In this document: positions 78 through 39,464 of the stretch, piece after piece
Position numbering within the stretch: the stretch's first letter is position 1
Layout of the letters: every line of letters begins with the position of its first letter
Assembly: GCA_965226055.1 (NCBI GenBank)
Contig: CBDDCA010000006.1
Coordinates: forward strand, 384,001 to 448,000
From: Spirochaetia bacterium
GTDB taxonomy: Bacteria > Spirochaetota > Spirochaetia > WTKD01 > G963693115
Length of the DNA: 64,000 nucleotides
Direction: 5' to 3'
Notes under the pieces: generated by a model
Database searches by the model: none
The model's input: the letters and a program-made list of their open reading frames with translations, nothing else
What the model was told of the DNA's origin: nothing
Position numbers and translations under genes: made by a program

Positions 78-1088
78 TTAATTTTTAATGGCTTCTTGGG
101 CTCTTTTTATGTCTTCTTGAGAAAAATATCCTTTTGCTACCAATTTATTCCATACAGGTTGTAGCATTTTTTTATACTCTTCTCTAATATCCCCTTCCAC
201 CATATTTACATTAGCAATCTGTGCCTCCAAGTTCTCAAGAGCAACTTCTTCTCCTGCAATTCTTAATTCATCACTTTTTATCATTGTGTCTCTTGCAACC
301 TCGTCAAATATATCTTTTAGATCCTGCGGAAGAGCATTATACCACGCTTTGTTCACCATAAATGGATCTGCACCATTGACATAATTGATAACAGTGAGAT
401 AATCAGTAACCTCTGCTACTTTCCATGTATCTAAATCTCCATTGCTACTACATGCTCCATCAATAACACCAGAACTCAATGCTAAATATACTTCTGAGCT
501 TGGCATTTCTTGTGGGTTTGCACCTAAGGCTTTATAGAATTCAATAATAGGAAATTGAGAGGGACTTCTAAAACTAATTCCCTTAAAATCACTAGGATTT
601 TCTAAGGCACGCTTTGTATTTACAATATTTCTAAAACCAGAACTTCCTACTGCAGGAACATAAACAGCACCACTTTCAGATGCCTTCTTATTTACCTCTT
701 TCATAAAATCGCTATTATTCAATTTTATAACTTCCTGTGCATCTGCAAATAAAAATGGTAAATTATATAAAAAATACTGCGGATTCAATAAATCATAATA
801 TGCTCCTCTATATCCATGAATGATACCTGTTGAAAGTTGATCAAACTGCTCTTTTTCGTTCCCTAGCACTCCACTATGATATATTTCAACCGTAATTCTT
901 CCGTCTGTTTTTTCTTCTAACTGTTCCTTAAAGTACATCATAGATTGAGTTCTTGGATGTGCTTCTGTCTGAGCATTTGAATACTTAAACACATAGCTAT
1001 CTTTATCATCTGATTCTGAACCACCATTTGCATATAGAGATATAGCCATTGCTATACATATCATAAAAACTAATAATACCTTTTTCAT
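78..1088 (-). CDS. dctP: TRAP transporter solute-binding protein (DctP family)
   Basis: Signal peptide ending ANGGSE; DctP motifs 'GRITVEIYHSGVLGNE', 'YKALGANP..M...EVY.AL..GVIDG'; AAGGAGG RBS. Confidence 0.9.
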   Translation of the reverse strand: MKKVLLVFMICIAMAISLYANGGSESDDKDSYVFKYSNAQTEAHPRTQSMMYFKEQLEEKTDGRITVEIYHSGVLGNEKEQFDQLSTGIIHGYRGAYYDLLNPQYFLYNLPFLFADAQEVIKLNNSDFMKEVNKKASESGAVYVPAVGSSGFRNIVNTKRALENPSDFKGISFRSPSQFPIIEFYKALGANPQEMPSSEVYLALSSGVIDGACSSNGDLDTWKVAEVTDYLTVINYVNGADPFMVNKAWYNALPQDLKDIFDEVARDTMIKSDELRIAGEEVALENLEAQIANVNMVEGDIREEYKKMLQPVWNKLVAKGYFSQEDIKRAQEAIKN

Positions 1089-1121
1089 ATAACCTCCTTT
1101 AGGTTTACTTGTTTATTCTTG

Positions 1122-2000
1122 TTATCTTTCACGAAATATTTTCTTAAAGACTTCTATAGATTCATTAAATCCATCAATATAGTTTCCTCCATGCGGTCTG
1201 TATACACTTTCAAAACTGATAACACCACTATAAGAATCTTTTCTTAAGGCATCTGCCAATGGCTCTAAATAGTGAGCCATATCCCCCTGCCCAAGCGGAC
1301 AACATCGTACTGTAGCCTGTGGAATATTGACTTTAACATCCTTTATATGAATATGCCCTAGAACATCCTTGATTTCCTGATATGCATCGGGAAATGGAAC
1401 ATCATTACAAAAAAGTGAGTTAGCAGGATCCCACATCACTTTGAGATTATTTGTTCCTAAATCTGTAATTAATTTTTTTGCCAAATACCCCGAAGTTACC
1501 ATAGCATTATTGCCTGTTTCAACCGCTAATGTCACCCCATGTTCCTCTGCATACCGTACAGGAACTTCCATTAATTGCAATAACTTATTCCAAGATGTAT
1601 TATTACCAGCATTCCATTCATCAGCCCCATCGTATCCATGAATAATCATTGTCTTAGCGAAACTCATAGTTCTAATTATTGGACACGAAAGAATGTCTGC
1701 AAAGTGGATCAGCTTTTTAAGATACTCCATCTGTACACGCATAAAATCAGAATCAACATCTACCGTTGCCACATTAGGTCCCTGAAACAAATGCCTCGTT
1801 AATGAACATACTTGCATATCAAAAGAATCCACCAATTTCTTTAGTGCATATATTTCCTCTTCTCTTTGATTTCCTATTTCACCATCTGGTTTGCTCCCAA
1901 TAAACTGTAGTTCAACCTGAGTGAGCTCATGTTGTTGCATTATTTCCAGAGCTTTTTTTATGTTATAATCTATTCCGTTTGTTATTACCCCTAACTTCAT
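1122..2000 (-). CDS. Sugar phosphate isomerase/epimerase (xylose isomerase-like TIM barrel)
   Basis: Metal-binding motifs 'LAVET', 'WDPAN', 'HIHIKD', 'SFES'; ATG at 2000 overlaps the upstream stop (TAATG). Confidence 0.8.
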   Translation of the reverse strand: MKLGVITNGIDYNIKKALEIMQQHELTQVELQFIGSKPDGEIGNQREEEIYALKKLVDSFDMQVCSLTRHLFQGPNVATVDVDSDFMRVQMEYLKKLIHFADILSCPIIRTMSFAKTMIIHGYDGADEWNAGNNTSWNKLLQLMEVPVRYAEEHGVTLAVETGNNAMVTSGYLAKKLITDLGTNNLKVMWDPANSLFCNDVPFPDAYQEIKDVLGHIHIKDVKVNIPQATVRCCPLGQGDMAHYLEPLADALRKDSYSGVISFESVYRPHGGNYIDGFNESIEVFKKIFRER

Positions 2001-2881
2001 TACCACTGAACCTCAGCTTTTGTAATTTGTTCTAAAAATTTTACAATAATCCAGTTATCTCCTTGAGGAAACATAGCACGAGCTGCTTCAAATAACTGAA
2101 ATGCTGTATTAGCAGTGAATACAGGCACTTTCATTTCTCTTGCTAACTGTGTCGATATTCCTAAATCTTTATGCATTGTATCAATATGACTCCCTGAGTT
2201 TTCAAACATTCTATCATTGATAAGTTTCATACAATTTTCCAGTATAGGAGATCGTACAGCACTAGTAGTGAACACATCAAACATCACCTTACCAGATACA
2301 CCAGCTTTCGCACCTAATGCCATTGCTTCAAATATACCAGCATAGCTTACTCCAATTAACACTTGAAGAGCAGCTTTCACTGTCTGTCCTAATCCTGCTT
2401 CTTCGCCTACACAGTGAATTGTACTTGATATAGCTTCTAAGAACTCTCTATTCTCTTCTATCACTTCTGATTTTGCTGCCACCATAAGTGTCAATGTTCC
2501 GTCTCTTGCACCGTTTAAGCCTCCGCTCACAGGAGAATCAATAATCTTAATAGCTCGAGACTGCACTTTTTCTGCCACTGACATAACTACTGAGGGCTCA
2601 ATAGTTGCAGTGATAATTATAGTCTGATGCGATTGCATAACCTGTACTAGCTCATCAACTATAGCATGAACCTGTTGTTTGTTCATCACCATAATAAAAA
2701 CAGTATCACACTTTGTAGCTAGCTCTTGTACTGTTGAAGCAACAATACCTCCATATGATTGAAATTCTGCAATACGTTCAGCTGATATATCAAAACCATA
2801 TGTTTCAAAATTGGCATTACATAAATTCTTAGCAATTCCTCCCCCCATATTCCCAAGTCCAATTACACCTACCTTCTTCAT
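2000..2881 (-). CDS. NAD(P)-dependent beta-hydroxyacid dehydrogenase (3-hydroxyisobutyrate/L-threonate dehydrogenase family)
   Basis: 'IGLGNMG' Rossmann motif, 'DSPVSGG', catalytic K in 'GQTVKA', 'HKDLG'. Confidence 0.85.
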   Translation of the reverse strand: MKKVGVIGLGNMGGGIAKNLCNANFETYGFDISAERIAEFQSYGGIVASTVQELATKCDTVFIMVMNKQQVHAIVDELVQVMQSHQTIIITATIEPSVVMSVAEKVQSRAIKIIDSPVSGGLNGARDGTLTLMVAAKSEVIEENREFLEAISSTIHCVGEEAGLGQTVKAALQVLIGVSYAGIFEAMALGAKAGVSGKVMFDVFTTSAVRSPILENCMKLINDRMFENSGSHIDTMHKDLGISTQLAREMKVPVFTANTAFQLFEAARAMFPQGDNWIIVKFLEQITKAEVQW

Positions 2882-3036: not shown

Positions 3037-3957
3037 TTGAAGAAATTAAAAAAAGAAATTATTGTTCAAGAAATATTTGCTATTCTCACCAAAAAATGCT
3101 TAGAGTCTAGTATTGGTGATACCGATAATGTGTACCTATCATTCAAGACCATTATAGAGCATCTCAATAGCAAATATAATATTGATTATCATTCTGAAGC
3201 ACATCTTTACCACCAATTAAAAAATTATGAAAAAGAGCATTCCATATATCTCTTTAGTAGAAAAGAAAATCATGGCATTATAGTATTGCTTCATCAATAC
3301 ACTACTTTTAAGAAACGCCTTTACTTAAACAAAAATATAAAAATTTTTCTTGCCAATGGATGTTTTGATATTATACAACAACTGAAAAATACACAAGATT
3401 TCCATATCTACCTTGGAACAGGCACCGAATGCTATTATGTAGCAAAACTTTTATTTGAAAAGTGGGACACAGACACCCTCCACATATATACACAAAATTT
3501 AGGCATTATACAATTATACTGTGAATCTGATTACAAACTCAATCATATTACCATACACACAAAAAACGGTACTATTGATAAAACTACTTTTACTCTCATA
3601 GACGAACAAAAAGATTATTTCTTAAGTACAAACTTTAATGCAATCATACAATCTCCAACATATATTATTGATACTGTCGGATATGTTGTATCCCATTTAG
3701 AAAGAAATATCAAAAAGAATGTCGCAAAAAAATCGAAAGGCAAAAAGATCATTCTTCTCACTTTATTTGAGTTTCTTACTCCTGATACATCAGAAAAAAA
3801 CGATTTACATGCATTTTGTAACATTGCAGAATATGACTATGCTATCACTCCACCAAAAAATATCAATCAACAAATTCACGATATTTATATTAAAAATCTT
3901 CCCCTTGAAGAATATATCAATTACTTTTCATATACAATATATAAAATAAAGAAATAA
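3037..3957 (+). CDS. Divergent DeoR/GlpR-like transcriptional regulator
   Basis: 'KKRLYLNKNIKIFLA...IYLGTGTECYYVA...IYTQNL' resembles the DeoR C-terminal sugar-phosphate domain; divergent from a catabolic operon. Confidence 0.55.
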   Translation: MKKLKKEIIVQEIFAILTKKCLESSIGDTDNVYLSFKTIIEHLNSKYNIDYHSEAHLYHQLKNYEKEHSIYLFSRKENHGIIVLLHQYTTFKKRLYLNKNIKIFLANGCFDIIQQLKNTQDFHIYLGTGTECYYVAKLLFEKWDTDTLHIYTQNLGIIQLYCESDYKLNHITIHTKNGTIDKTTFTLIDEQKDYFLSTNFNAIIQSPTYIIDTVGYVVSHLERNIKKNVAKKSKGKKIILLTLFEFLTPDTSEKNDLHAFCNIAEYDYAITPPKNINQQIHDIYIKNLPLEEYINYFSYTIYKIKK

Positions 3958-4005: not shown

Positions 4006-5040
4006 TTACTTTCCTTTATTCTGTAGTATAGGGATATTATTTTCCTTGCTTACCGAATGAGAAGAACCTCGTGATGTTGCAGAAGGTAACGATTTTTTTG
4101 CATGTGCCCCAAGTGTATGAACAAACGACTTCCCTTCCATTACTCCTGAATATCCTGTAACTGCAGACATCACAAGGCTTGTCATCTGTTGTAGAAGAGC
4201 TGAACCTGTAGATATTCCTGGCATAAACGCTTGAATAATCGTTCCTGATTGAAGTATTAAGTACAATCCTAACACTATATGGATAGTCATATATAACAGT
4301 AACGAAAAAGTGATTTCATCAGCAACGATAGATTCAGTGATAACTTTCTTAAAACTTTCAATAACAAGCCCAGTAACCAATGATATACTGAGTATCCGTA
4401 TTCCTTGAAAAAAAGTAACTGATAGAGCTTTACTTCCAAGAAACCGTGTATGATCATAAATATTAAAAGGAATCAACAATATTGCAAGTACCATAATAAA
4501 ATAAAATTCTATTTTAACAAGACATAACAAGATAACAATAACACCAATACTTATAGTAAAACAGAGTAACGCAACAACCAATAATAACAATGGCACTATT
4601 ACTGTCATTATATTCCATATACTAATATCTACTATTTCTTTAATTTCTGCAATAAAATGAACAAATACTGTTTTATAGGCAAAATCAAAAAGCTCAAAAG
4701 GATTCTGCAAATAATTAAAGTTATAAGAATGTATATTTCCACTCATTTGCTGTAATGTATCAGTAAAGATAAGTGCAAGCGAATCTAAATTTTGTGCTAT
4801 ATAAATCCAAGCTCCCAAGAAGAGTATTTTCTTTACAATGCTTGCTAGTGTCATATATTCACCGAGCATCATTTTAATGCCAATAAATATAATTTCAAAT
4901 AAAAGGCATGCCCATAATATTACATTTGCCATATTATGGGCATTTGTAAAATATGACTGCAATGTGTCTGTATAAAATTCAAGTGAATCATAGAGCTTAT
5001 CAAGCCCCAGATGCTGTATAGCAATATTTTCTTTTTCCAT
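4006..5040 (-). CDS. trbL: Type IV secretion inner-membrane protein TrbL/VirB6
   Basis: Polytopic; 'IEFY......LLIPF....TRFLG.KA' TrbL motif; last gene of the trb cluster. Confidence 0.8.
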   Translation of the reverse strand: MEKENIAIQHLGLDKLYDSLEFYTDTLQSYFTNAHNMANVILWACLLFEIIFIGIKMMLGEYMTLASIVKKILFLGAWIYIAQNLDSLALIFTDTLQQMSGNIHSYNFNYLQNPFELFDFAYKTVFVHFIAEIKEIVDISIWNIMTVIVPLLLLVVALLCFTISIGVIVILLCLVKIEFYFIMVLAILLIPFNIYDHTRFLGSKALSVTFFQGIRILSISLVTGLVIESFKKVITESIVADEITFSLLLYMTIHIVLGLYLILQSGTIIQAFMPGISTGSALLQQMTSLVMSAVTGYSGVMEGKSFVHTLGAHAKKSLPSATSRGSSHSVSKENNIPILQNKGK

Positions 5041-5046
5041 ATGTAT

Positions 5047-5688
5047 TTATTGAATTCCCCAAAAAGCCTCTGCTTTCTCTTTTGTAAGCACTCGTTCTGC
5101 TTCACGCAACTGTGCCTCAAGTGCTTCACCTTTTTGTAACACTCTTGTTTCATATACCATTTGAGATAACTGCTTATTTGCCTCTAATAAACTGACATTT
5201 AATAATTGAATCTGTTCCATCACAGAATCTTCTGCTTCTACTTTTTCTTGTATCCATGTATACATGTCATGCTGCTGTACTATTGGCTGGGTGATATTCT
5301 CTGCTATTTTCGCGATTTGTAAATCGTGTATTACAGTACGCATATTTTCCAAGCTCTTCTGTTTTAAGGAAGAAGAAATATCACTTTGTATAATAGCAAT
5401 ATTATCTTGTAAAAATGAATCTAACTCAAGCATTTTTACAACTTCTTTTACTATAGTATCTTTCAGTGAATGCATACTTTCGTCTATTGTATCTTTTAGA
5501 ATACCAGTATCAAATTGCTTATATGTGTTTATAAGAAATTCAAACTCCTTATTGAGATTCTCTATCTGTAACACTTGATTATTTATCATAGTAATGAGAT
5601 ATGCAATCTCATTACCAATACTTTGTGACCAAGCCCCATATGTACTGGTACAAAATAACAATATGCTTACTATATACTTGTATTTCAT
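5047..5688 (-). CDS. TrbJ/VirB5-like secreted helical protein
   Basis: Signal peptide, 'INNQVLQIEN', C-terminal 'QIQLLN......QLSQM'; lies between trbE and trbL. Confidence 0.6.
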   Translation of the reverse strand: MKYKYIVSILLFCTSTYGAWSQSIGNEIAYLITMINNQVLQIENLNKEFEFLINTYKQFDTGILKDTIDESMHSLKDTIVKEVVKMLELDSFLQDNIAIIQSDISSSLKQKSLENMRTVIHDLQIAKIAENITQPIVQQHDMYTWIQEKVEAEDSVMEQIQLLNVSLLEANKQLSQMVYETRVLQKGEALEAQLREAERVLTKEKAEAFWGIQ

Positions 5689-5706
5689 ATACTATCCTTA
5701 TAATTA

Positions 5707-7995
5707 CTATGTATCAATAGATGATGATAACAGCCTAAGCATTTCATCATTAATATCTAACGAAAATAACGCACGCTTATTTGATGAGCATATATAATAT
5801 TCTTTCTTAGGAATTGCTCCTGCTATTGTGCTTATTTCAGTCTCATTTAAGCCAAACTTTGTATACATGCTTCGCATCTGATTATTTGTAGCAGATATAT
5901 CTGGCAAGAAAATTTTGCTATGACATGCACTCATGATAGTATCTATAAGCTGAGAATTAACAACATCTGCCAATTCCTGTGTAGCAAGAATAACAAACAC
6001 ATGTTTTTTACGCAATGTTTTTAGCCATGTACGAAACCGTTCAGCAAAATATGCATTCTTTAAGAACAACCATCCCTCATCAATTATAAGCAAAGTAGGA
6101 TGCCCATCAAAATGCATCTCAATACTGTAAAACAAAAATAACAAAGCTGGTATCAATGCTTTTTCTCCCATATCCATGAGAATACTCATTTCAATAAACA
6201 ACCACCGTGCATTATAATCATCGTTCATAACACCATCAAACACTGTACCATAGATACCATCTTTTGTATATTTTTCAAATATTCTTTTTATCGAAAAAAA
6301 CTGGAGCAGATCCTTAAATGTGGACATAGTTCTTTGCTGCTTCTCAACAGTACCAAGAATTTCTAAAGAACGTTTTAAGTCATCAATTTCATCCACTGAT
6401 ACCTCATGATTATTTACATAGAGTAATTGCTCACAAAACTGCAAGCCCCAATTTCTTTCTTTAGCAATATCCATATAACAAAAGGGTTGAAAACTCATAG
6501 AGCTATCTTTCGCTCCAGGAACATATATTTCTCCGTTTACATTTTTACTTATTTGAAGTGCAGAAAAATCTTTATCAAAAATAATTACCTGTGCATGACT
6601 ATATCGTAAAAATTGCAATGCTAACATACCCAACAAAGTAGATTTTCCAGCACCTGTGGGACCTACAATTAAACTATGTCCTACATCTTGTACATTTAAG
6701 TTTAGATAGAACACATTTTGTTGTGAGTTCGCAATCATATGTGCATGAGAATTATCTGCTATCTTTTGCATAAAATCATTGTCTTTATTACCATTCCAAA
6801 GCGATGACAGTGGTAATAAATGAGCAAAATTAACTGTATGCATCAAAAATTTTCTTGTATTTGCATATACTTGTCCAGGTAAAGACGATAACCATGCCTC
6901 CATAACATTTATGCTTTCTTCTCTCACTATAAACCCTTTTTTCTGAAACACTTGCTTTATTCCATCCACTTTCTTTTCCAGCGTATCTTTCTCTGTATCC
7001 CTTACAATTATTACACTCGTAAGCAATCCAAAATGCACAGTCCCTTCTCCTAAAAGCTGTAATGCTTCATCTGCATTCATTGCTTTTGTAACTGCTTCGG
7101 TATTCTCTAATGCTCCTTCTCCACTTTGCTGTTCTTGTATAACCTGCATAGTACTTTTTCTCTGTGAATAATACTTTCTACGCACTTGTTTAATCTTTGC
7201 CAATGTATGCTCTTCATCCATACATATAAACCTTTGTTGCCACCGAAAATCAATATTCATAGTTTGTAGTTCATCCAGTATATTAGCATGAGTAAAGTGA
7301 GGAAAATCATTTACTGATATAACAGAATAAAATGTATCTCCTATAAGAAAATTTTCTTCAATACTTACTGATTCATCTACAAGATACTCGTCAATATCAA
7401 TTCCTTCTGGTGGCACCAATACCTTATGGCAAGTATTTGAAATACATGAATGAAGATATGTAAGCAAAGATGAATCACGTAAAAGTGTTATAGATGAAAA
7501 ACAGTCTTGCAGTAAGCCTTTCATCTCATACACTTGTTTTAGAAACTCTTGTAAAGAATCTTCTAAGGAAAAGGAATCAGTATTAAAATACTGAGACATC
7601 TTTTTTCTATTCTGTTGTTGAAAACAAAAAGTAATATAGTATTCCATACAATACAAAGGATTTTTTTCAAAATACTTTTTCCTTTCGTATTCCATTGTTT
7701 GTGCTACAGCAACATCCCAATTATCTTGAAATTCTAGTACTGTTTTTTCTCTTCTAGATTCAAAAAAAACAGACCATCCTATACCAAAACGTATCATTAC
7801 ATTATTGATTGCCGCTACAACACCATCCACTTGTTCACTTGTACAATAGCTAAGATTCATAGGATGCACCACAAATGTACTTTGAAATACACAGTCTTTC
7901 TGCATAACTACTTCAGGAGCAACCAAACAGCACCATGGTATAAAATCATGAAGATAATGCTGTTTATGGGCATGTTTCAATCTTAAATTTAGCAT
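5707..7995 (-). CDS. trbE: Type IV secretion ATPase TrbE/VirB4
   Basis: 'DVGHSLIVGPTGAGKST' Walker A, 'LLIIDEGWLFL' Walker B, 'WLKTLRKK', 'AWLSSLPG'. Confidence 0.93.
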   Translation of the reverse strand: MLNLRLKHAHKQHYLHDFIPWCCLVAPEVVMQKDCVFQSTFVVHPMNLSYCTSEQVDGVVAAINNVMIRFGIGWSVFFESRREKTVLEFQDNWDVAVAQTMEYERKKYFEKNPLYCMEYYITFCFQQQNRKKMSQYFNTDSFSLEDSLQEFLKQVYEMKGLLQDCFSSITLLRDSSLLTYLHSCISNTCHKVLVPPEGIDIDEYLVDESVSIEENFLIGDTFYSVISVNDFPHFTHANILDELQTMNIDFRWQQRFICMDEEHTLAKIKQVRRKYYSQRKSTMQVIQEQQSGEGALENTEAVTKAMNADEALQLLGEGTVHFGLLTSVIIVRDTEKDTLEKKVDGIKQVFQKKGFIVREESINVMEAWLSSLPGQVYANTRKFLMHTVNFAHLLPLSSLWNGNKDNDFMQKIADNSHAHMIANSQQNVFYLNLNVQDVGHSLIVGPTGAGKSTLLGMLALQFLRYSHAQVIIFDKDFSALQISKNVNGEIYVPGAKDSSMSFQPFCYMDIAKERNWGLQFCEQLLYVNNHEVSVDEIDDLKRSLEILGTVEKQQRTMSTFKDLLQFFSIKRIFEKYTKDGIYGTVFDGVMNDDYNARWLFIEMSILMDMGEKALIPALLFLFYSIEMHFDGHPTLLIIDEGWLFLKNAYFAERFRTWLKTLRKKHVFVILATQELADVVNSQLIDTIMSACHSKIFLPDISATNNQMRSMYTKFGLNETEISTIAGAIPKKEYYICSSNKRALFSLDINDEMLRLLSSSIDT

Positions 7996-8225
7996 ACAAA
8001 ATAATTAGGGTATCTAATTGCTTTCATAGCAACATCAAAAAAATGAATATCTGATTTTGTAAAAGCAATACATATAGTATGTAAAACAATGCCTAAGGGG
8101 AATACCCACCACTGTCCTGCAGCTAAAACACTTACCAACACAGAGAACCAAATAAAATAACATGCCTTCTCATGTATCCCTGCAATAACCACAGGGTATA
8201 ATAAGGATTTATATACACGTGTCAT
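7989..8225 (-). CDS. trbD: TrbD/VirB3 small membrane protein
   Basis: 'VYKSLLYP..IAG', two TM segments, 'KSD..FF'; between pilin and VirB4; ATG 8225 with GAGGTG RBS. Confidence 0.8.
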   Translation of the reverse strand: MTRVYKSLLYPVVIAGIHEKACYFIWFSVLVSVLAAGQWWVFPLGIVLHTICIAFTKSDIHFFDVAMKAIRYPNYFVC

Positions 8226-8240
8226 ATTCACCTCTCACAT

Positions 8241-8555
8241 CTAAGGTAACAGCAACCCTGCACCGGAATTAAACAACAAGGACAATACGCGAGGAGCATT
8301 CATCGCTATTCCTATGCCCATGACTATAAAAAATATCTTTTGCTTTGAAGCTCCTCCATCTGAAGCAGCTAACATTATTCCTGCACCTGCAATCAAAATG
8401 ATGCCAATAATCATAACCGTCTTCCCAGTAAGAGCTTTTTGTATTTTTTCAAGAGGAGAATCCCATGGCATTTCCTCTCCTGAACCAGAAACCGCCCATA
8501 CAGACGCTAATGATAGAAACAATAAAACAAAGCAACATAGTATTGTTTTTTTCAT
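8241..8555 (-). CDS. trbC: TrbC/VirB2 pilin
   Basis: Signal peptide, 'MPWDSPLEKI..ALTG' TrbC motif, two hydrophobic helices; AGGAGG RBS. Confidence 0.85.
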   Translation of the reverse strand: MKKTILCCFVLLFLSLASVWAVSGSGEEMPWDSPLEKIQKALTGKTVMIIGIILIAGAGIMLAASDGGASKQKIFFIVMGIGIAMNAPRVLSLLFNSGAGLLLP

Positions 8556-9478
8556 ATAACCTCCTTAGTTATAAATGATTGATTTGAATATTCCAATATT
8601 TCTTTTATTTCAAGTACCTTTCGTGTAGATTTTCTTCTTCCAACATATACGCAAATATCTATAATTTCTGCAATCAATGCCCTTGGTGCTTCCTCTATCC
8701 TCTCTTCTATCAGTTGTGCAAGTCGTTCAAGAGCAGCCACCGCAGAGTTTGCATGCAATGTACTTATCCCTCCATTATGCCCTGTATTCCATGCTTTCAA
8801 TAAATCTAATGCTGCCGAATCTCGTAATTCTCCAATAATAATTCTATCTGGGCGCATTCGTAACACATCTTTAATAGCATTTGTATAGGAATACTCTTTA
8901 CTTGTTAAAAGACGAAACCCGTTTGCTGGATTACAATATAGCTCTGGGGTATCTTCAATAATCACTATACGTTCTTCCTCAAGCACACTATCAGAAAGTA
9001 ATGCATTTACAAGTGTAGTTTTTCCTGAACCTGTACCTCCTGCTATCAAAATATTCTTTTTAAGAGCCACACTGTTTTGTAAATACTGCTTCTGTGCATC
9101 ACTCATAGTATTACATGCCACTAAATCATCAATACTCATGGTGTACTTTCGTTGTTTTCTAATACAAAAAACAGGAAATTCTGATGCAGGAGGGATAATA
9201 CCTTGAAAGCGAAATCCATAGGGACCTACTTTTGCAGAAACAGAAGGAGATTGAGTGTTTACATAAAAATTATTATTACTAGCAATCACTCGTATAATAG
9301 ATTCAATTTGCATACCAGAAAGATATGTTTCTGTTTCTTGCAATATATTTTCTTTTTCAACAAGCACCGCACCTTTTTTATTCACCATAATCTCAGTGAT
9401 AACATCGTCTACAAGGTACTGTGTTATTGGCTGTAAAACTACATCTTGAAAATTATTATTCTGTATTTCACCCATCAA
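8552..9478 (-). CDS. trbB: Conjugative-type ATPase TrbB/VirB11
   Basis: 'GGTGSGKTT', 'IEDTPEL', 'LRMRPDRIIIGELRD', 'WNTGHNGGISTLHANS'. Confidence 0.92.
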   Translation of the reverse strand: MMGEIQNNNFQDVVLQPITQYLVDDVITEIMVNKKGAVLVEKENILQETETYLSGMQIESIIRVIASNNNFYVNTQSPSVSAKVGPYGFRFQGIIPPASEFPVFCIRKQRKYTMSIDDLVACNTMSDAQKQYLQNSVALKKNILIAGGTGSGKTTLVNALLSDSVLEEERIVIIEDTPELYCNPANGFRLLTSKEYSYTNAIKDVLRMRPDRIIIGELRDSAALDLLKAWNTGHNGGISTLHANSAVAALERLAQLIEERIEEAPRALIAEIIDICVYVGRRKSTRKVLEIKEILEYSNQSFITKEVI

Positions 9479-9579
9479 TTAGTAGTACTTCATCTACAGA
9501 GTTTTGCTTGAAGAAACTATACTATTTTACTCCATAATTACAGATTACTGTGTCTAAACAAGATATGAAGGACAATACT

Positions 9580-11265
9580 CTATCTTACTTTTAAGTACAT
9601 AGCATATCTTTTTGATTGTATCTGTGATATACAGATAAATAAAGAAAACATGAGTACAAACAAAGCAAGTAATCCGTATCCCAATATGCTAAAATAAGCT
9701 ATTGACACAACCTGTGATATATACAATATAAGAGATACCATAAACACCGAAAAAGGAATAATTGACATACTGATACATATAATCCCAAAAGATGCCTGTT
9801 TTCTTTTTTCTTTTCGTTGTTGAGCTTGTATTAAAACAGAATAAGCAAATATCATTGCTCCATATCCACCAAAAATAAAAAGAGCAACAGAAAACAGTAT
9901 GAGTACAACATTGACAAACAACACATTGATAGGAAAATAATATTTTTTCCAAACAGGGTAGATACGCACTTGTGCCCACAAATTTACTTTAAAAGGATCA
10001 ATCATAAGATACGCTATATCTTCAACGGATACAGCACTAGGCATATACCATATATTCTGTGCATATTCTCCCTCCGCTATCTGTGGATGATATGTTACTA
10101 TTGAGTTTTCTTCTATAGCATAGATATGTATCTTATTCTTTGTAAGTTTAGCATACGGAGTTTTTATATGCCATTGTAATGTTTCATTATCATCTAATTG
10201 AAGTAATTCAATATCCTTAAAATAAACAGAACCTGCAGACACAGACACATTCTGAGCAGAAATTATCAATTTTCCTTCTTCATTTTTATCTATAAAATGA
10301 AGCGGTTTCTTTTGTCTTCTTTCAAGCATATCAACAAGAAATACTTTACGTGCTTCTCCTGCAAAAAAAGTAAAGGTATCTAAAGTTTCCTTATACTTCG
10401 CTAACAACCCTTCAATATCTGCATGAGAAGAATAAGTATTCTGTAAAGCTACTAATGTTCTGTATCCTGCAAGAATATCCAATTCCAAACTATCAGAAGA
10501 ATAAAGAACATCACGCAAATATACTAGATGTGATTCAAGCCCAATAAGAGATCTTTGTTCTCTACTAAAAAAATTGTCAATATATCCTTGAATACGGTTA
10601 CGTATAAGCTCTGTTTCACTATTTATTCCAAAAATAGTAATATACCGAAAGAGTAGATACTGTGCAGCATAGTATTTTTCTGCCACTATGAGATCATCAA
10701 TAGCCCTTGCCATTTTTCCTGCATCCAAATTATAAAAATTAAGTACTGTCAACTGCTCTACTCTTTCTATGCTTTCATTGATAGTATCACTAAGCGATTG
10801 TATGTACTGTGTATCTTTACGAGAAATACTAATTTTCGAAACACTATCAGATAATAATCTCGTATCTTCAGGAAAAAAATTTTCAATAACATCTACATAA
10901 AAATTAGCTTCGTTACTCTCTCTACTCTCATGTGCAACAACATATGCATCATATACTTTTTGTAAGAGTTCATATTGTTCTTGATGAGATATATCATTGT
11001 TCTTATTACCCCTCAATAGAGGCACTAATACAAATAACAACAAGATGGTACCGCTTATTAACATATGAATAGTTGATACAAAAAGAAAAGAAGACTTGTT
11101 TTTTAATAAAAAGATAAAGATATAATATATGAAAAATGTATACAAAGGAGCAACAAAATAATTGATAAGTATCCTGCCTTGTTGCTGTTCCCCATATATG
11201 CTCATAACCACATATACCCAAAAAGCAGAGAAAATAAACACAAATATATACTTGACTATTTTCAT
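9580..11265 (-). CDS. Hypothetical membrane protein with large periplasmic domain
   Basis: 561 aa; three N-terminal and three C-terminal TM segments. Confidence 0.65.
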   Translation of the reverse strand: MKIVKYIFVFIFSAFWVYVVMSIYGEQQQGRILINYFVAPLYTFFIYYIFIFLLKNKSSFLFVSTIHMLISGTILLLFVLVPLLRGNKNNDISHQEQYELLQKVYDAYVVAHESRESNEANFYVDVIENFFPEDTRLLSDSVSKISISRKDTQYIQSLSDTINESIERVEQLTVLNFYNLDAGKMARAIDDLIVAEKYYAAQYLLFRYITIFGINSETELIRNRIQGYIDNFFSREQRSLIGLESHLVYLRDVLYSSDSLELDILAGYRTLVALQNTYSSHADIEGLLAKYKETLDTFTFFAGEARKVFLVDMLERRQKKPLHFIDKNEEGKLIISAQNVSVSAGSVYFKDIELLQLDDNETLQWHIKTPYAKLTKNKIHIYAIEENSIVTYHPQIAEGEYAQNIWYMPSAVSVEDIAYLMIDPFKVNLWAQVRIYPVWKKYYFPINVLFVNVVLILFSVALFIFGGYGAMIFAYSVLIQAQQRKEKRKQASFGIICISMSIIPFSVFMVSLILYISQVVSIAYFSILGYGLLALFVLMFSLFICISQIQSKRYAMYLKVR

Positions 11266-11269
11266 ATAG

Positions 11270-12145
11270 CTACCCCCTACTCCTACGGTAAGACAGAGAA
11301 AGAGTAACTATCAAAACAATATTTGTTACTAAGAAAAACGCTGTACCTCCTACTAGCCACCAAAATCCCTGTGTACTGTGATGAAAAGCATAAAAGAGAA
11401 AGAGTAGCCAGACAAAAATAAAGGAAAATCTTACAAAATATAATTCTATACCATATCCTACCAAAAATAACGATACATACGCAAGTAATATCAAACACAA
11501 AAATAATAGCAACTGAACATAGGCATTACTACTATATGATTTTGTGAGAATATTTTTATGCACTAACAGCTTAGGGAGAACACTGTCACTAAAAAACGAT
11601 ACGCTAGATACATCTTGCCATTGCAAAAAAATACCCTCTGTATGTGTTTCTGCATCTTCATCCTGCACTTCACGCAATACGATGGAATCATCAAACAACA
11701 CCGTATACATAGTACCATCCAAGCGTTGTCCAAAATAAGCAAATCGTGAAGCATACTCCTTTTTATCATCAGGAGATGATACAGGAATAAATAGCTCAAT
11801 ATTATCACTTGGACGCAACCTTTCTATTATTGCACCACTCTCTGTATCCACCACTTGTGATATATCCATTGTTGGAGAACGAACAATACTCACCCAATAA
11901 AAAACACAAAGAAACATCACGACAAAACATAAAAATATATATGGTAGCTCTTTTTTCACTGCGGATACCCTAAAAGAAGAACATGCTACTGAAATAGCAA
12001 TAATAATGCCCATTACATATAACAATGAATTCCAAAAAAGAATATGTATAAATGGAGGCACTATGGTAAATCGTGTTATTATAAAAAACAACAGAAACCA
12101 TAAAAACAATAGAATTGGAAACAGAATAGTTGATCTTACATTCAT
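11270..12145 (-). CDS. Hypothetical membrane protein
   Basis: 291 aa; 3+3 TM layout like the neighbouring gene; 4-bp gap to it. Confidence 0.6.
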   Translation of the reverse strand: MNVRSTILFPILLFLWFLLFFIITRFTIVPPFIHILFWNSLLYVMGIIIAISVACSSFRVSAVKKELPYIFLCFVVMFLCVFYWVSIVRSPTMDISQVVDTESGAIIERLRPSDNIELFIPVSSPDDKKEYASRFAYFGQRLDGTMYTVLFDDSIVLREVQDEDAETHTEGIFLQWQDVSSVSFFSDSVLPKLLVHKNILTKSYSSNAYVQLLLFLCLILLAYVSLFLVGYGIELYFVRFSFIFVWLLFLFYAFHHSTQGFWWLVGGTAFFLVTNIVLIVTLSLSYRRSRG

Positions 12146-12770: not shown

Positions 12771-14204
12771 CTATAAATCTCCTTTTTCTATAAGCTCTAC
12801 AGTTTGGTTGAGTACAGTATCAGTTTCTAAATTATATACAGTGATAACATCATTAAAAACATTTGCCTGTCGTACTAATAAACTAGTAATGGCTCTAAAA
12901 TCCTGAAATTCCATATTCATTTCTTTTAATCGTTGCCTAAACTCTTCAATCTCTTTTTCTCCAATCTTTCCTAGTTTTTCTTCTACAAATTTTCGTACTA
13001 AATCATCATCAGCAATCTGAGATATCCATATTCGTTCTTGCATGTTACTTCCAAAGCTAATTCCTTCTATTTCTACATCTGGAGCTATCCCAACCCCATT
13101 TATATAGTTATCACCAGGAGTGTAATATTCTGCAATGGTCAATGTAATAAACCCTTCACCAAAGGGCTGCACTGTCTGCACTAAGCCTTTGCCGTATGTA
13201 TCTTTTCCTACAAGCGTGGCTCTTCCATTGTATTTAAGCGCTCCTGCTAAAATTTCTGATGCCGAAGCAGATCCTCCATTGACTAACACAACAATTTTTT
13301 TATCGTAGGGAACTATTGATGCATTACGTGCAAAGTACTGATAACGATTATTTTCTATTCTTGAATCAGTACCCACTATCAACTCTCCCTTATTAAGAAA
13401 AAAATCAGCAATTTTTAATACTGCAGCAAGAGAGCCTCCTGGATTGTTTCGCAAATCAATAATTAAATGCTGATACCGTTCTTTCTCTAATTCTTGTAAT
13501 ACAGACTTAAATCTTTCGGGGGTATTATCATTAAATGACAACAACGAAATATACGCAATATCATCAGTTATTTTTGCGTGTTTAAGATAAATTACTTTTA
13601 TGATATCCCGCACAATAGTGATTGGAACTATTAAATCATCTCGTTTTATTGTAATATCTACACTTGATCCAGGTTCTCCTCGCATAATATGTATAGCATC
13701 ATTTGCACTCATTTCTGCAGTACTCATATCATCAACAGAAATAATTAAGTCTCCCGTTTGAATGCCTGCAAAATACGCAGGTGTCCCTTCTATGGGAGCA
13801 ATAACCTGAATATAATGTACTCCACTCTCTACATCAAGACCTTCATCTATGGTGATACCAAGCCCTCCAAACTCCCCTGTTATAGATTCTTGGTATTTCT
13901 CACTCTCCTCTTTTGTTACATAAGTTGAATACGGATCACCAAGATTCTCTAACATACCTTTCAATGTACCATCTAACGATTCTGTGCTATTAGGATTTAC
14001 ATAGTAACTTTTTTCTATAAAATCATACAGCTGTGTAACCTTATCAATAAACTTCTTTCGCTCTAACTTTTTATTAACTTCAGTATCTTCTGACTCAGAA
14101 CTCTTAGCAAACACTCCTTTTGAAAACAAAAACGGTTCACTCGTTAGAAAAAATACTAATAACAAATACAGGAGTATCTTATATTTTTTTGATATAATCT
14201 TCAT
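12771..14204 (-). CDS. ctpA: Carboxy-terminal processing protease (S41A)
   Basis: 'LGDPYS', PDZ 'FGGLGI', 'IDLRNNPGGSL', 'SASASEI', 'TYGKGLVQ'; start at 14204 chosen for its AGGAGAAGGA RBS. Confidence 0.92.
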   Translation of the reverse strand: MKIISKKYKILLYLLLVFFLTSEPFLFSKGVFAKSSESEDTEVNKKLERKKFIDKVTQLYDFIEKSYYVNPNSTESLDGTLKGMLENLGDPYSTYVTKEESEKYQESITGEFGGLGITIDEGLDVESGVHYIQVIAPIEGTPAYFAGIQTGDLIISVDDMSTAEMSANDAIHIMRGEPGSSVDITIKRDDLIVPITIVRDIIKVIYLKHAKITDDIAYISLLSFNDNTPERFKSVLQELEKERYQHLIIDLRNNPGGSLAAVLKIADFFLNKGELIVGTDSRIENNRYQYFARNASIVPYDKKIVVLVNGGSASASEILAGALKYNGRATLVGKDTYGKGLVQTVQPFGEGFITLTIAEYYTPGDNYINGVGIAPDVEIEGISFGSNMQERIWISQIADDDLVRKFVEEKLGKIGEKEIEEFRQRLKEMNMEFQDFRAITSLLVRQANVFNDVITVYNLETDTVLNQTVELIEKGDL

Positions 14205-14286
14205 TCCTTCTCCTAATCGATATCTTTGCATAAAAAACTGTATATAGAATATGCATAGTTATTACACATTATTGTATAATTATATC

Positions 14287-15309
14287 ATGTTATATATTAA
14301 TTATCCACAATGGCTCAGCCCTGAAGTTATTCCCGGAATACCTATCCGATGGTATAGCTTAGCGTATATTTTTGGATCTCTTATCACATATATGCTTGTT
14401 GCAAATATCAGTAAAAGATCAGATAAAAATCTCCACGAACACTTACCAAATTTATTTATGTGGATGATTCTCTCTATGTTTATTGGAGCTCGACTATTTT
14501 CAAAATTAGTATATAGCAGAGATCTATCAATATTACTTACCCCCTGGGAAATGTTTTGGCCTTTTGAAAATGGAAGGTTTGTAGGCATACAAGGATTAAG
14601 CTATCATGGTGCATTGATAGGAACTATCATTGGAGGATGCATATATACAAAATTAAACCATTTACATTTTAGAAAAACAGCAGATCTTATTACTGTTTGT
14701 GTTCCACTAGGATACACATTAGGTCGCTTAGGAAATTTTGCAAACGGAGAATTATATGGAAGAGTAACAACAAGTGCATGGGGAATGATATTCCCGTACG
14801 CTGATCCTCTCCCCTATGGAGACGAAAAAGTAAAACAAATTGCAAACTCCTTAAACATAGAACCCAATGCACAAGGGCTTGTAAACCTTCCTCGACATCC
14901 ATCGCAACTATACGAAGCTTTTTTAGAAGGAATAGTCTGTTTTGCCATTCTCTATACTCTGTATAGAATCATTGTTAACACAAAATACTATTTTCCTGGT
15001 CTATTCGTTTGTCTTTATGTTATACTCTATTCTATTGCTCGATTCTTTGTTGAATACTTTCGGCAACCAGACGAAGGACTTGATTTTGTCGTAAGTTTTT
15101 CTGAAACTTCACAACCACGTTGGATTTTACTCAATTTTAATGAGTTTAGTACGGGACAAATTCTTTCTCTCATCGCTATCATCATTGCATTACTAGGGCT
15201 TATTGCATTCTATATGTTCGAAAAGCATGCAAAACAACATACAATACCACCACAACCACAGCCTCATAGGGTTTCTAAAAAACATCGTAAACATGCATCA
15301 AAAAGATAA
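14287..15309 (+). CDS. lgt: Prolipoprotein diacylglyceryl transferase
   Basis: 'IRWYSLAY', 'GLSYHG', 'GRLGNFANGELYGR', 'HPSQLYE', 'RFFVEYFRQPD'. Confidence 0.95.
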   Translation: MLYINYPQWLSPEVIPGIPIRWYSLAYIFGSLITYMLVANISKRSDKNLHEHLPNLFMWMILSMFIGARLFSKLVYSRDLSILLTPWEMFWPFENGRFVGIQGLSYHGALIGTIIGGCIYTKLNHLHFRKTADLITVCVPLGYTLGRLGNFANGELYGRVTTSAWGMIFPYADPLPYGDEKVKQIANSLNIEPNAQGLVNLPRHPSQLYEAFLEGIVCFAILYTLYRIIVNTKYYFPGLFVCLYVILYSIARFFVEYFRQPDEGLDFVVSFSETSQPRWILLNFNEFSTGQILSLIAIIIALLGLIAFYMFEKHAKQHTIPPQPQPHRVSKKHRKHASKR

Positions 15310-16111
15310 ATCTCAAACACTCCCTACAGACACCATATCTATTCAGCATTATTCTTCTCCACAATATCGCCCTTTGCCATCATCAGAACCAGTGTTACAA
15401 CTACTTATAAAAGTATCAAAAAACCATTCCCATATTGAAAAAAAAAGCAACATATCATTTCATTCGATCACTCCTCCTCTTACACTCCCTGACATCACTC
15501 AAAAGCCTATACTAAAAAACATACAAAAATATATGAAATTATACTTTTTTTTCTGCCCTGCATGTTTTTCTTTTGATACCATTGATACAAAAAAACAGTT
15601 CTGTTACTGTCAAAGTTGTGCTACCATATGGGATATATTTTCCTCTGTGTATCATATGCCTCAAGAAACAGATACCAGCTTAGTATATGAAGCACTACAG
15701 ACATGGTATGTGTGGCAATATGCTTGTTTACTCACATTCATTGATAACAGAGTACCCACCAATGAATGCATCATCACAATAAACGATGTATCCGTTCAAA
15801 TATCCACAACACATTCAAAGCATAACAACACAGAAAAGCATACACAAATACAGTTATACCCCGATAACCTTATATGGCAACCACGCAATAGTGTAAGCAA
15901 CATACTGTATCACACCTTTGTAAGCAAACAACACATATCAAACATATCGCTACAAGATATACATACCATTGATTATAGCAATGAAATTCCTTTACATACA
16001 GTACATATACATACACACAATAATGTACTGACTTTTCATGGAACAAAACACAATAGTATACTTTCGTATTTCTTTGCCTTACACTATCTTGTCAATACTA
16101 TACATACGTAA
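15293..16111 (+). CDS. Hypothetical protein with CxxC...CxxC zinc ribbon
   Basis: 'FFCPAC' and 'CQSC', 'WYVWQ'; start uncertain. Confidence 0.45.
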   Translation: MHQKDKSQTLPTDTISIQHYSSPQYRPLPSSEPVLQLLIKVSKNHSHIEKKSNISFHSITPPLTLPDITQKPILKNIQKYMKLYFFFCPACFSFDTIDTKKQFCYCQSCATIWDIFSSVYHMPQETDTSLVYEALQTWYVWQYACLLTFIDNRVPTNECIITINDVSVQISTTHSKHNNTEKHTQIQLYPDNLIWQPRNSVSNILYHTFVSKQHISNISLQDIHTIDYSNEIPLHTVHIHTHNNVLTFHGTKHNSILSYFFALHYLVNTIHT

Positions 16112-37295: not shown

Positions 37296-39464
37296 TTAAC
37301 GAGATGTAGGACCTGTGTAGCTTCCTCCTGCCCAATCTGGCTTTTTACCATTTCTCTCCAAAGCAGTACCCTTAAATGCATCTTTATAATAAACCGATGG
37401 CATAGACAAATGATCTTTCCATTCGTATATATCCTGATTAAACGCTGTTGCTCCGTTCAATATATCCCTTATAGTAAAAACTCTACTTAAGTTCCAGTTT
37501 GATATATCGCTATTAAATGCTGTACTCCCTTTAAACATCTCACGCATGTTTGCAACATTACTCACATCCCACCCCGATATATCACTATTAAATGCCGTAT
37601 TATCATTAAACATACCAGTCATGGCAGTTACCTTGCTTACATCCCACTTTGATATATCTCCATTAAAACGTGAATTAGAAAACATATCTTCCATATTCTT
37701 CACATTCCCTACTTTCCAATCTGCTATGCCCCCATGCTCTCCTGTAAAGGCAGAACTGGCAAACATATATCGCATAGTTGTAACATTGCTTACATCCCAT
37801 TTTGATATATTTCCATTAAATTTACTACTACTCCAAAACATACCTTCCATATCAGTAACATTACTTACATTCCACCCTGATATATCGCTATTAAATTCTT
37901 TAGTATCAAAAAACATATTATTCATAGTAGATACTATACTTACATCCCACTTTGATATATCTCCATTAAACTGCGATCCGCCAAACATGGCCTCCATATT
38001 TTGCACTTTACTTACCTTCCAATTTGATATATCCCCATTAAATGCTTTAGCTTCATAAAACATAGCTTCCATATCTACAACATTACTTACATCCCACTTT
38101 GATATATCTCCATTAAACTGCGATCTAAAAAACATCCTACTCATATTCAAAACACTACTCACATCCCAGCCCGATATATCCCCATTAAACTTACTCAGCA
38201 CCCCATTACGAAACAAGCCACTCATATCATTAATATTACTTACATCAATATCATTCAACGATACTGTCGCTTTATCTATGACCCCATCTCCATCAGTATC
38301 CACTATTTGCTTAAGAAGTGCTACTAACTCCTCTTTTGTCCTAAGAACATCCTGAATGAGTACAAAGAATGTTCCTGTCACATTGGTATTCTCAGGTTTC
38401 TTAAACGCTCCTGTCCCAGTAAAAGTAACTGTAAATTTTATCGGCCTCTTTGATGCAGTAGTAATTGCTCCTGCGCTTGCCGTTATTGTTCCTGTCGCTG
38501 TATCAAACACCATGCCTGTAGGAAGACTATTTGGCGTGAGTGCAAAGGTCCCTGTCGCTGCTACTGGGTAGCGGGAAATAGAAAAACTGACCGCTTGTCC
38601 TACTACTGCAAAAAATGTTTCTTTTTGCCCTAATGTTACCTTTAATGTCAACCAATGAGGCTCCTGTGATACCCCAGAGTCCTTAAACACATTTTTACTG
38701 TTTGTCGCTACTGATGGTGGTATTTTCCATAGCTTCGTATCTTGATTAAAGCCCCTTGCTCCTTCAAACATACTGTTTATCTGTGTTACGCTACTCATAT
38801 CCCATTTTGATATATCTGCATTAAACAACACTGCTCCCTGAAACATGCTACTCATATTCATAACGGCACTCACATCCCATTGTGCCACATTGCCATTAAA
38901 GGCAGTTGCCTGCTTGAACATACTACTCATATCTGTAACCTTACTCACTTTCCACTTTGATATATCTCCCTTAAAACTTGTTGCTCCTTCAAACATACTG
39001 CTCATATCCGTGACGACACTCACATCCCATTGTGCCACATGCCCGTTAAAGGCAGTTGCTTGCTTGAACATACTGCTCATATCTGTAACCTTACTCACTT
39101 TCCAATCCGATATATCCCCATTAAAGCTTGTTGCTCCTTCAAACATACTGCTCATATTCACAACATTACTCACATTCCACTTTGATATATCGCCATTAAA
39201 TGTAGGATATTTGACAAACAAACTACTCATATCACTAATCTTACTTGTATCAATGCTATTTAAGTTTGCTCTACTATCTTTTCCTACCCGTTCAGAGATA
39301 AGCGTAAGTAACTGTGCCTTTGTTTCAGGCTGTGTACCTCCGCCAGGATCAGTGCCTCCCCCCGATGAGCTACCAGATGAACTACTACTTGGCTCTTCAC
39401 AGCTAGTAACTATTACTGTCATTACAAACAGTATCATTATAGAGAACAATACATATTTTTTCAT
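37296..39464 (-). CDS. BspA/DUF285 (PARCEL)-repeat surface lipoprotein with central Ig-like domain
   Basis: Lipobox VTSC, Ser/Gly tether, two blocks of ~25-aa 'FNGDISKWDVSNV.DM..MF' repeats around 'LPTGMVFDTATGTIT'; AAAGGAGGAG RBS. Confidence 0.9.
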   Translation of the reverse strand: MKKYVLFSIMILFVMTVIVTSCEEPSSSSSGSSSGGGTDPGGGTQPETKAQLLTLISERVGKDSRANLNSIDTSKISDMSSLFVKYPTFNGDISKWNVSNVVNMSSMFEGATSFNGDISDWKVSKVTDMSSMFKQATAFNGHVAQWDVSVVTDMSSMFEGATSFKGDISKWKVSKVTDMSSMFKQATAFNGNVAQWDVSAVMNMSSMFQGAVLFNADISKWDMSSVTQINSMFEGARGFNQDTKLWKIPPSVATNSKNVFKDSGVSQEPHWLTLKVTLGQKETFFAVVGQAVSFSISRYPVAATGTFALTPNSLPTGMVFDTATGTITASAGAITTASKRPIKFTVTFTGTGAFKKPENTNVTGTFFVLIQDVLRTKEELVALLKQIVDTDGDGVIDKATVSLNDIDVSNINDMSGLFRNGVLSKFNGDISGWDVSSVLNMSRMFFRSQFNGDISKWDVSNVVDMEAMFYEAKAFNGDISNWKVSKVQNMEAMFGGSQFNGDISKWDVSIVSTMNNMFFDTKEFNSDISGWNVSNVTDMEGMFWSSSKFNGNISKWDVSNVTTMRYMFASSAFTGEHGGIADWKVGNVKNMEDMFSNSRFNGDISKWDVSKVTAMTGMFNDNTAFNSDISGWDVSNVANMREMFKGSTAFNSDISNWNLSRVFTIRDILNGATAFNQDIYEWKDHLSMPSVYYKDAFKGTALERNGKKPDWAGGSYTGPTSR
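38841..39160. repeat. 150-bp internal duplication (two-repeat block) in the DUF285 gene
   Basis: Near-identical units start at 38841, 38991 and 39141. Confidence 0.85.

Follow-up and report, generated by a model that had tools for sequence, protein, structure and literature searches.

What can half of a conjugation machine be doing in the chromosome of a spirochaete? The question is raised by a block of six genes on the minus strand, between positions 9478 and 4006, of a 64,000-nucleotide (nt) stretch of Spirochaetia bacterium DNA (assembly GCA_965226055.1, contig CBDDCA010000006.1, positions 384,001 to 448,000), which is referred to here, at its full length, as the window. The genes resemble those of Trb-type type IV secretion systems (T4SSs); an earlier note on this DNA had described them as a minimal chromosomal module of pilin, stalk and motors, lacking a core complex and DNA-transfer genes and put to some domesticated use. 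On the evidence below, the block is a real, intact, apparently conserved and chromosomally fixed Trb-type half-system in a spirochaete lineage.

Six intact open reading frames (ORFs) of 308, 104, 80, 762, 213 and 344 amino acids (aa) make up the block. The first two overlap by 4 nt, 9 nt separate the second from the third, the third and fourth overlap by 7 nt, and gaps of 18 and 6 nt follow, which confirms the description of six uninterrupted, tightly coupled genes (overlaps, or gaps of at most 18 nt). Their order, trbB-C-D-E-J-L, is that of conventional trb operons, with the J slot assigned by position. Five of the six proteins (TrbB, TrbC, TrbD/VirB3, TrbE and TrbL) pass their Pfam gathering scores, and the earlier calls of VirB11, VirB2, VirB3, VirB4 and VirB6 stand on that footing; the VirB5-like call survives as a label of position only. 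None of the five recognised Trb proteins reaches its NCBIfam equivalog cut-off, and they are therefore divergent members of their families. The guanine-plus-cytosine (GC) content of the block, 0.32-0.35, is the same as that of its surroundings, the window as a whole being about 33% GC.

The first gene, trbB (8552..9478; minus strand, as throughout the block), encodes a VirB11-type hexameric ATPase of 308 aa when read from the TTG at 9478, with an ATG next at 9475. The protein matches T2SSE (PF00437; 133 bits, 1.2e-38) and TIGR02782, TrbB_P (297 bits, 1.4e-88), slightly below the latter's cut-off of 304.6, and is 38-39% identical to three conventional TrbB proteins, conserving the presumed Walker A and Walker B nucleotide-binding motifs and the His-box region. 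The VirB2-type pilin gene trbC (8241..8555) specifies 104 aa with a signal peptide and two hydrophobic helices (PF04956; 55.5 bits, 6.9e-15); identity to two conventional TrbC proteins is 32-37%, and the motif after the signal peptide and the glycine-rich C-terminus are conserved. IncP P-type pilins are C-terminally trimmed, and a gene for an S41 C-terminal processing peptidase (CtpA-like; 12771-14231, minus strand) lies 3 kb upstream of the pilin gene. The VirB3 gene, trbD (7989..8231), encodes 80 aa from a GTG at 8231 or 78 aa from an ATG at 8225; its product scores 26.6 bits against PF05101 (cut-off 23.9; 7.3e-6) and is 19-31% identical to two conventional VirB3/TrbD proteins.

The largest product is the 762-aa VirB4 ATPase encoded by trbE (5707..7995), which matches NF010447 at 1.1e-202, PF03135 at 73.5 bits (3e-20) and, in the PDB, the solved R388 VirB4 (TrwK) at 1.3e-19. 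Identity to conventional TrbE is 36-40%, the closest plasmid copy being that of Prosthecochloris aestuarii pPAES01 (39.4%). Walker A and Walker B, as we presume these motifs to be, are invariant in all eight aligned TrbE sequences, so that the alignments confirm intact Walker motifs in both TrbB and TrbE. The last ~35-55 residues of conventional TrbE are absent, a truncation common to the TrbE sequences P0002, P0003 and P0004. The block closes with trbL (4006..5040), encoding a 344-aa VirB6 polytopic membrane platform that matches PF04610 across the full domain (60.6 bits, 2.4e-16) and TIGR02783 (5.7e-16). This protein is 19-24% identical to conventional copies (23% to pPAES01 TrbL, E=2e-17), and in an alignment with three conventional TrbL it lacks their Gly/Ala-rich linker and conserved C-terminal tail; a PDB sequence search with it returned nothing relevant.

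The ORF in the TrbJ/VirB5 position (5047..5688) is placed there by its position, its size, its signal peptide and its helical prediction. It encodes 213 aa with an N-terminal signal peptide and is predicted to be all-helical, and it has no Pfam or NCBIfam family match even at E<=10 and no sequence match in the PDB. Profile comparison by hhalign aligned it with six conventional TrbJ sequences over a short N-terminal stretch only (E=0.15), and a three-sequence profile of the protein did the same (E=0.094); BLASTP against pPAES01 TrbJ gave E=0.41, and tblastn against 72,556 plasmids gave no trbJ and one irrelevant match. An AlphaFold 2 (AF2) model has five helices at a predicted local distance difference test (pLDDT) score of 49, and a fold search with this low-scoring model had no match at E<=0.001. 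An exhaustive search of 1.84 billion representatives recovered, besides the protein itself, one relative at 38% and another at 25%, whose termini are conserved, and because these relatives exist the ORF is taken as a real gene. As a control, two conventional TrbJ proteins were compared with Pfam: one was unmatched and the other had only a below-cut-off match to DUF4141. The missing match therefore does not speak against membership. The VirB5/TrbJ label of the 213-aa ORF is positional, and none of these comparisons puts it in the TrbJ/VirB5 family.

Conventional trb operons are known to continue with trbF, trbG and trbI, as the earlier note had pointed out, and this was borne out in a comparison set of at least 80 trb loci, all proteobacterial and at 31-40% identity, from one genome-contig scan. 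By the tblastn matches listed, TrbL is succeeded by TrbF in 69 of the 80. Eleven loci (L004, L005, L008, L010, L012, L040, L042, L046, L047, L053 and L059) break off ahead of the TrbF position, and every locus that is informative on the point, 69 of 69, therefore has the trbL-trbF order. The matches listed also include TrbG in 67 loci, TrbI in 67 and TraG, upstream of trbB, in 50 of the 80. Pfam identified TraG, TrbB, TrbC, VirB3 and TrbL, then VirB8, CagX/VirB9 and TrbI/VirB10, in two control loci, and plasmid pPAES01, the source of the closest plasmid TrbE, carries an annotated traG-trbB-C-D-E-J-L-F-G-I array with a MOBP relaxase. An operon that ends at trbL is a real departure from the conventional trb layout.

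The place where the operon ends can be read against the architecture of the R388 system, as set out in the available part of a 2025 review: VirB3 and VirB4 form the inner-membrane complex (IMC) with VirB11 docking under VirB4, the stalk consists of VirB6 and VirB5, the VirB2 pilin is brought in by VirB3 and VirB6 and extracted by VirB4 and VirB11, VirB8 forms the arches, and VirB7, VirB9 and VirB10 form the outer-membrane core (PMC12624023). The earlier assignment of the retained genes to pilin, VirB5/VirB6 stalk and VirB3/VirB4/VirB11 motor maps onto this scheme. By it, what has been retained corresponds exactly to the inner half, which handles the pilin, and what is missing corresponds to the outer half, which includes the parts that span the periplasm.

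Are the missing genes elsewhere in the window? Family scans covered 51 window ORFs (14, plus 37 of at least 110 aa; beyond 20 kb, only ORFs of at least 110 aa were covered), plus re-scans, and within these no VirB8, CagX/VirB9, TrbI/VirB10, VirD4, relaxase or integrase was found. Applied to conventional loci, these Pfam models give matches at 1e-59 to 1e-104, with VirB8, VirB9 and VirB10 in control loci L001 and L002 at 1e-59 to 1e-67. The window contains no tRNA gene and no Rfam match, and a search for att-like repeats flanking the block gave only weak, chance-like AT-rich pairs. The absence of a nearby integrase, relaxase, VirD4, att-like repeat and tRNA, as first described, is thereby confirmed for the scanned window, with one weak exception 50 kb from the block: a 375-aa ORF (60055-61182, plus strand) whose matches, to the rve_3 integrase core (E=0.018) and to an AraC helix-turn-helix (HTH), are all sub-threshold. 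This ORF is the window's only mobile-element-like signal and may be a degenerate transposase. The further description of a system without a core complex holds for the 64-kb window, which is about 3% of a genome of ~2.4 Mb.

At its distal end the block stops cleanly. Only 48 bp separate the end of trbL from that of a 306-aa gene running towards it (3037-3957, plus strand), so that the operon does end at trbL against a convergent gene; the word regulator, which the earlier note had used for it, depends on a sub-threshold match to DeoRC, the DeoR C-terminal sensor domain (E=0.011), the one family signal in this protein. The gene is divergent from genes at 78-2881 (minus strand) for a tripartite ATP-independent periplasmic (TRAP) solute-binding protein, a TIM-barrel isomerase/epimerase-like protein and an L-threonate-dehydrogenase-like protein, and it more likely regulates these TRAP/sugar-acid genes than the T4SS. 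On both sides, native-looking genes of the same composition stand within 50-100 bp of the block, and the rest of the window carries Lgt, BacA, UvrD, prolyl-tRNA synthetase (ProRS), ApbE and similar housekeeping-like genes.

The host and its relatives provide the evidence for conservation. Named relatives of the window's ProRS occur at ~61-65% identity only and belong to Alkalispirochaeta and to Spirochaetales and Spirochaetia metagenome-assembled genomes, confirming a spirochaete host. Among 5.8 billion proteins, close relatives of TrbE are very few: the first, at 98%, lies on a contig of 2.36 Mb and the second, at 82%, on one of 975,373 bp, two more, at 48% and 47%, come from small metagenome contigs, and others stand at 41% or below. 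The 975,373-bp sister contig also carries ProRS at 88% and the 561-aa permease encoded upstream of trbB at 52%; TrbE has therefore been kept nearly to the degree of an aminoacyl-tRNA synthetase, whereas its neighbour has been kept far less well. A derived C-terminal truncation is common to four TrbE lineages, the most distant of them at 47% identity, and the two at 48% and 47% are full length. Clade conservation is judged here from protein matches (TrbE, ProRS and the permease) rather than from gene order in the relatives. Since composition is fully ameliorated, the genes have stayed open through much divergence, and intact long ORFs over such divergence argue against a neutral remnant. The proposal that the block is not a decaying integrative and conjugative element (ICE) fits this pattern, both in the one sister genome and in the four-lineage TrbE clade with its intact motifs.

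Tentatively, and with somewhat less than even confidence, we favour the reading that the block is part of a split chromosomal T4SS whose VirB8/9/10-type partners are encoded at another locus. An ancestor would then have acquired, from a conjugative element, a block of a P-type T4SS (Trb, derived from mating-pair formation type T, MPF_T) that became fixed in the chromosome and has been maintained by selection, the mobility genes having since gone from the locus. One tightly coupled operon would make the pilin TrbC together with an inner-membrane engine for pilin recruitment and extraction, in which TrbD/VirB3 and a TrbE/VirB4 hexamer of dimers would sit above a docked TrbB/VirB11, and a TrbL/VirB6 platform would be capped by the secreted helical protein from the VirB5 position. 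The assembled set may recruit membrane pilin and polymerise it, or gate a substrate, at the inner membrane, and VirB8/9/10-type partners from the other locus would span the periplasm and outer membrane. Such a machine might take up or transfer DNA, or it might serve contact-dependent secretion; that the block makes a filament or works in uptake is pure conjecture.

Two kinds of published evidence are consistent with a split system. VirB10 and VirB8 are presented, in the part of the R388 review available, as organisers of stalk and IMC assembly, and a selected set of pilin, VirB5-position protein and VirB11 therefore suggests a complete apparatus (PMC12624023). Divided loci also have precedents in the excerpts at hand: in Rickettsia, 18 vir genes lie in five islets and are vertically inherited (PMC2653234), and in Helicobacter pylori ComB, comB2-4 and comB6-10 are separate operons (PMC7366825). 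Several points weigh against the split reading. The second locus is an assumption, the window being a small fraction of the genome, and core genes are absent from it while the same models detect conventional loci; VirB7 and VirB1-type genes were not seen in the 64 kb either. That TrbE and TrbL have lost conserved C-terminal regions, and that the VirB5-position protein cannot be recognised, would also fit a loss of the usual partners, and the 82% TrbE identity could reflect recent transfer between two lineages instead of long purifying selection.

The same facts can be read, along the lines of the earlier note, as a machine that has no core at all, a possibility we consider real, if on the unlikely side. 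The genome would then lack VirB7-10, and the six genes would form an autonomous, domesticated inner-membrane machine in a diderm, either building a periplasmic or membrane-proximal filament by pilin polymerisation or carrying DNA or protein no further than across the inner membrane. Any filament would remain within the unusual periplasm of the spirochaete or leave through it and the outer membrane by a non-T4SS route; the outer membrane might also not be crossed at all. In a diderm, the machine would parallel the archaeal Ced/Ted or the minimal Mycoplasma systems. The clean end of the operon at trbL, where all informative conventional loci listed have trbF next, is in keeping with this, as is the lack of any core gene in the window. 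Changed partners are suggested by a TrbE tail that is missing across the clade, a TrbL that has lost its tail and a VirB5-position protein that cannot be recognised, and the conservation argues for function. Machines with VirB2, VirB4 and VirB6 exist in Ced/Ted (PMC9905601), as does a system without VirB8 in a Mycoplasma ICE (PMC12857230), according to the sections of these papers available. However, the systems lacking VirB8 or the outer-membrane core complex that appear in the available text of PMC12857230 and PMC12624023 are all monoderm or wall-less, with no diderm example; a pilin with VirB11 is what diderm systems that form pili typically have, and such systems need a conduit through the outer membrane; and the window samples only the small part of the genome given above.

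A stranded remnant of an integrated conjugative element, with trbF-G-I, traG, relaxase and integrase deleted or rearranged away and the six genes left unbroken and functionless, appears improbable. The usual view of an incomplete T4SS locus is that the element is degrading, at least in the accessible portion of one survey (PMC3548315), the break here falls exactly inside a canonical operon, and no gene reaches an NCBIfam equivalog cut-off. But all six ORFs are intact with coupled junctions, composition has fully ameliorated, TrbE in the sister genome stays close to ProRS in identity while the neighbouring permease does not, and TrbE at 47-48% is still full length, with the same derived truncation and invariant Walker motifs; this reading is rated low because of the TrbE conservation.

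That the block belongs to a still-mobile element larger than the window, or to a tripartite or split ICE with integrase, relaxase and other Trb genes outside the 64 kb, is highly improbable: tripartite ICEs exist (PMC5882170, as far as its available text goes), the locus is read within the window and the faint rve_3 ORF at 60055-61182 lies in it, but the close flanks on both sides look native and give way to Lgt, BacA, UvrD and ProRS, neither repeats nor a tRNA were found, and TrbE, ProRS and the permease lie together on one contig in the sister genome too.

On the upstream side of the block, a 101-bp spacer (9479..9579, minus strand) separates trbB from two polytopic membrane genes of 561 and 291 aa (9580-12145, minus strand). 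The spacer may hold the operon's own promoter, or readthrough from upstream may cover the operon; it carries no terminator, and a promoter/terminator scan gave no guidance, since promoter-like sites were fewer (45) than shuffled sequence would lead one to expect (57.5). Neither membrane protein has a family match, with no Pfam match at E<=10. In a protein Atlas both fall among clusters of spirochaete hypothetical membrane proteins, and some look-alike clusters have LptF_LptG on 13% and 27% of their proteins. Foldseek with an AF2 model of the 561-aa protein (pLDDT 49) placed LptG chains of LptB2FG in the top five PDB positions (E 4.8e-4 to 3.5e-3), with LptC also among the matches; probabilities were 0.63-0.99 but TM-scores only 0.14-0.28. 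The two lines are independent but weak; they make it probable that the pair is a permease of the LptF/G type and no part of a T4SS. Permeases of the LptF/LptG kind have six transmembrane segments (TM) with a periplasmic beta-jellyroll between TM3 and TM4, and the 561-aa protein has an extra helical domain of ~220 residues ahead of its beta-rich part. It evolves fast, as its identity in the sister genome shows beside that of ProRS, and has only three homologues in the 5.8 billion proteins; hhalign found no relation between its family and the 291-aa protein, and a PDB profile search with the family had no matches. PADLOC, run on four proteins, found nothing. The two genes had been considered as novel substitutes for VirB8-10, a candidacy rejected on their resemblance to LptF/G-type permeases.

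Some further genes of the window are recorded for completeness. A 302-aa ORF (15203-16111, plus strand) overlaps the end of lgt and has a weak match to a PARP catalytic domain (E=0.011). An ImmA/IrrE-type M78 peptidase gene (46012-46506, minus strand) stands ~1 kb from that of an HTH_25 protein (43902-44981, minus strand), with a LolA-like gene (44974-45855) between them, in a housekeeping setting 36-42 kb from the Trb block; genes of the ImmA/IrrE type are frequent regulators of prophages and ICEs. Three very large DUF285 proteins (leucine-rich, BspA-like) are encoded at 37296-39464, 49405-54009 and 61388-64000, all on the minus strand, with fn3 domains in at least the second and third and an Ig-like domain (He_PIG) in the first. 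In the genes at 49405-54009 and 61388-64000, GC content is 0.43-0.45 against ~0.33, AT skew reaches -0.46 and the otherwise negative GC skew is reversed.

No described spirochaete Trb or T4SS cluster was found in the literature searched, which covers few subscription journals and is in part represented by excerpts, and a search for trbBCDEJ or truncated trb clusters yielded, among the matches listed and in the text available, nothing but complete trbBCDEJLFGI operons and unrelated passages. No word beginning 'Spirochaet' occurs in either of two broad T4SS papers (PMC12857230, PMC3548315). The non-proteobacterial MPF_T systems in 2011 data, from the portion of that survey at hand, belong to Chlorobi, Acidobacteria and Fusobacteria only (PMC3548315), and the 'Spirochaetes' passage seen in the TXSScan preprint concerns the type I secretion system (10.1101/031039). 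The phylum is absent from the parts of T4SS surveys and reviews examined. Conservatively read, the block amounts to a Trb-type system that has become fixed in the chromosome of a spirochaete, with clade-specific changes in TrbE, TrbL and the VirB5-position protein. To our knowledge, all well-studied diderm T4SSs depend on a VirB7/9/10 core and VirB8 arches. Should the core-less reading be true, a maintained set of pilin, VirB3/4/11 and VirB5/6 stalk would show what this sub-assembly does alone, and it would be a second domesticated conjugation machine after archaeal Ced/Ted.

Among the closest known systems is the P-type Trb/MPF_T class (IncP, Ti and Tn4371-type, pPAES01), which has the same families in the same trbB-C-D-E-J-L order. 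In contrast to it, the block's locus carries no trbF/G/I, traG, relaxase or replication and integration genes and lies in the chromosome, whose composition it has; conserved C-terminal regions are missing from TrbE and TrbL, the protein in the TrbJ position cannot be recognised, and all its proteins fall below the NCBIfam equivalog cut-offs. Of the features of a domesticated T4SS, a chromosomal site and freedom from mobility genes are seen in the window. The minimal T4SSs of Gram-positive and Mycoplasma ICEs, in the available sections of PMC12857230, likewise have no outer-membrane core, and those of Mycoplasma also do without VirB8 and VirB1; unlike the block, they possess VirD4, have no pilin, VirB5 or VirB11, and reside on mobile elements in cells without an outer membrane. 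The archaeal Ced/Ted DNA-import systems resemble the block in being chromosomal and free of mobility genes, with a core of pilin, VirB4 and VirB6 without VirB7-10 (PMC9905601, from the text available). Ced/Ted, however, belong to single-membrane hosts and their proteins have no sequence similarity to bacterial Trb, whereas the block, known from its genes alone, is plainly Trb-derived, sits in a diderm host and has also kept VirB3, VirB11 and the VirB5-position gene. The Rickettsiales rvh 'archipelago' lacks VirB5, and H. pylori ComB lacks VirB5, VirB11 and VirD4, whereas the block, known from one locus, keeps VirB11 and a VirB5-position gene; both systems nevertheless offer the likeness, in the excerpts available, of chromosomal, vertically kept loci that carry no mobility genes, with the system divided among them (PMC2653234, PMC7366825).

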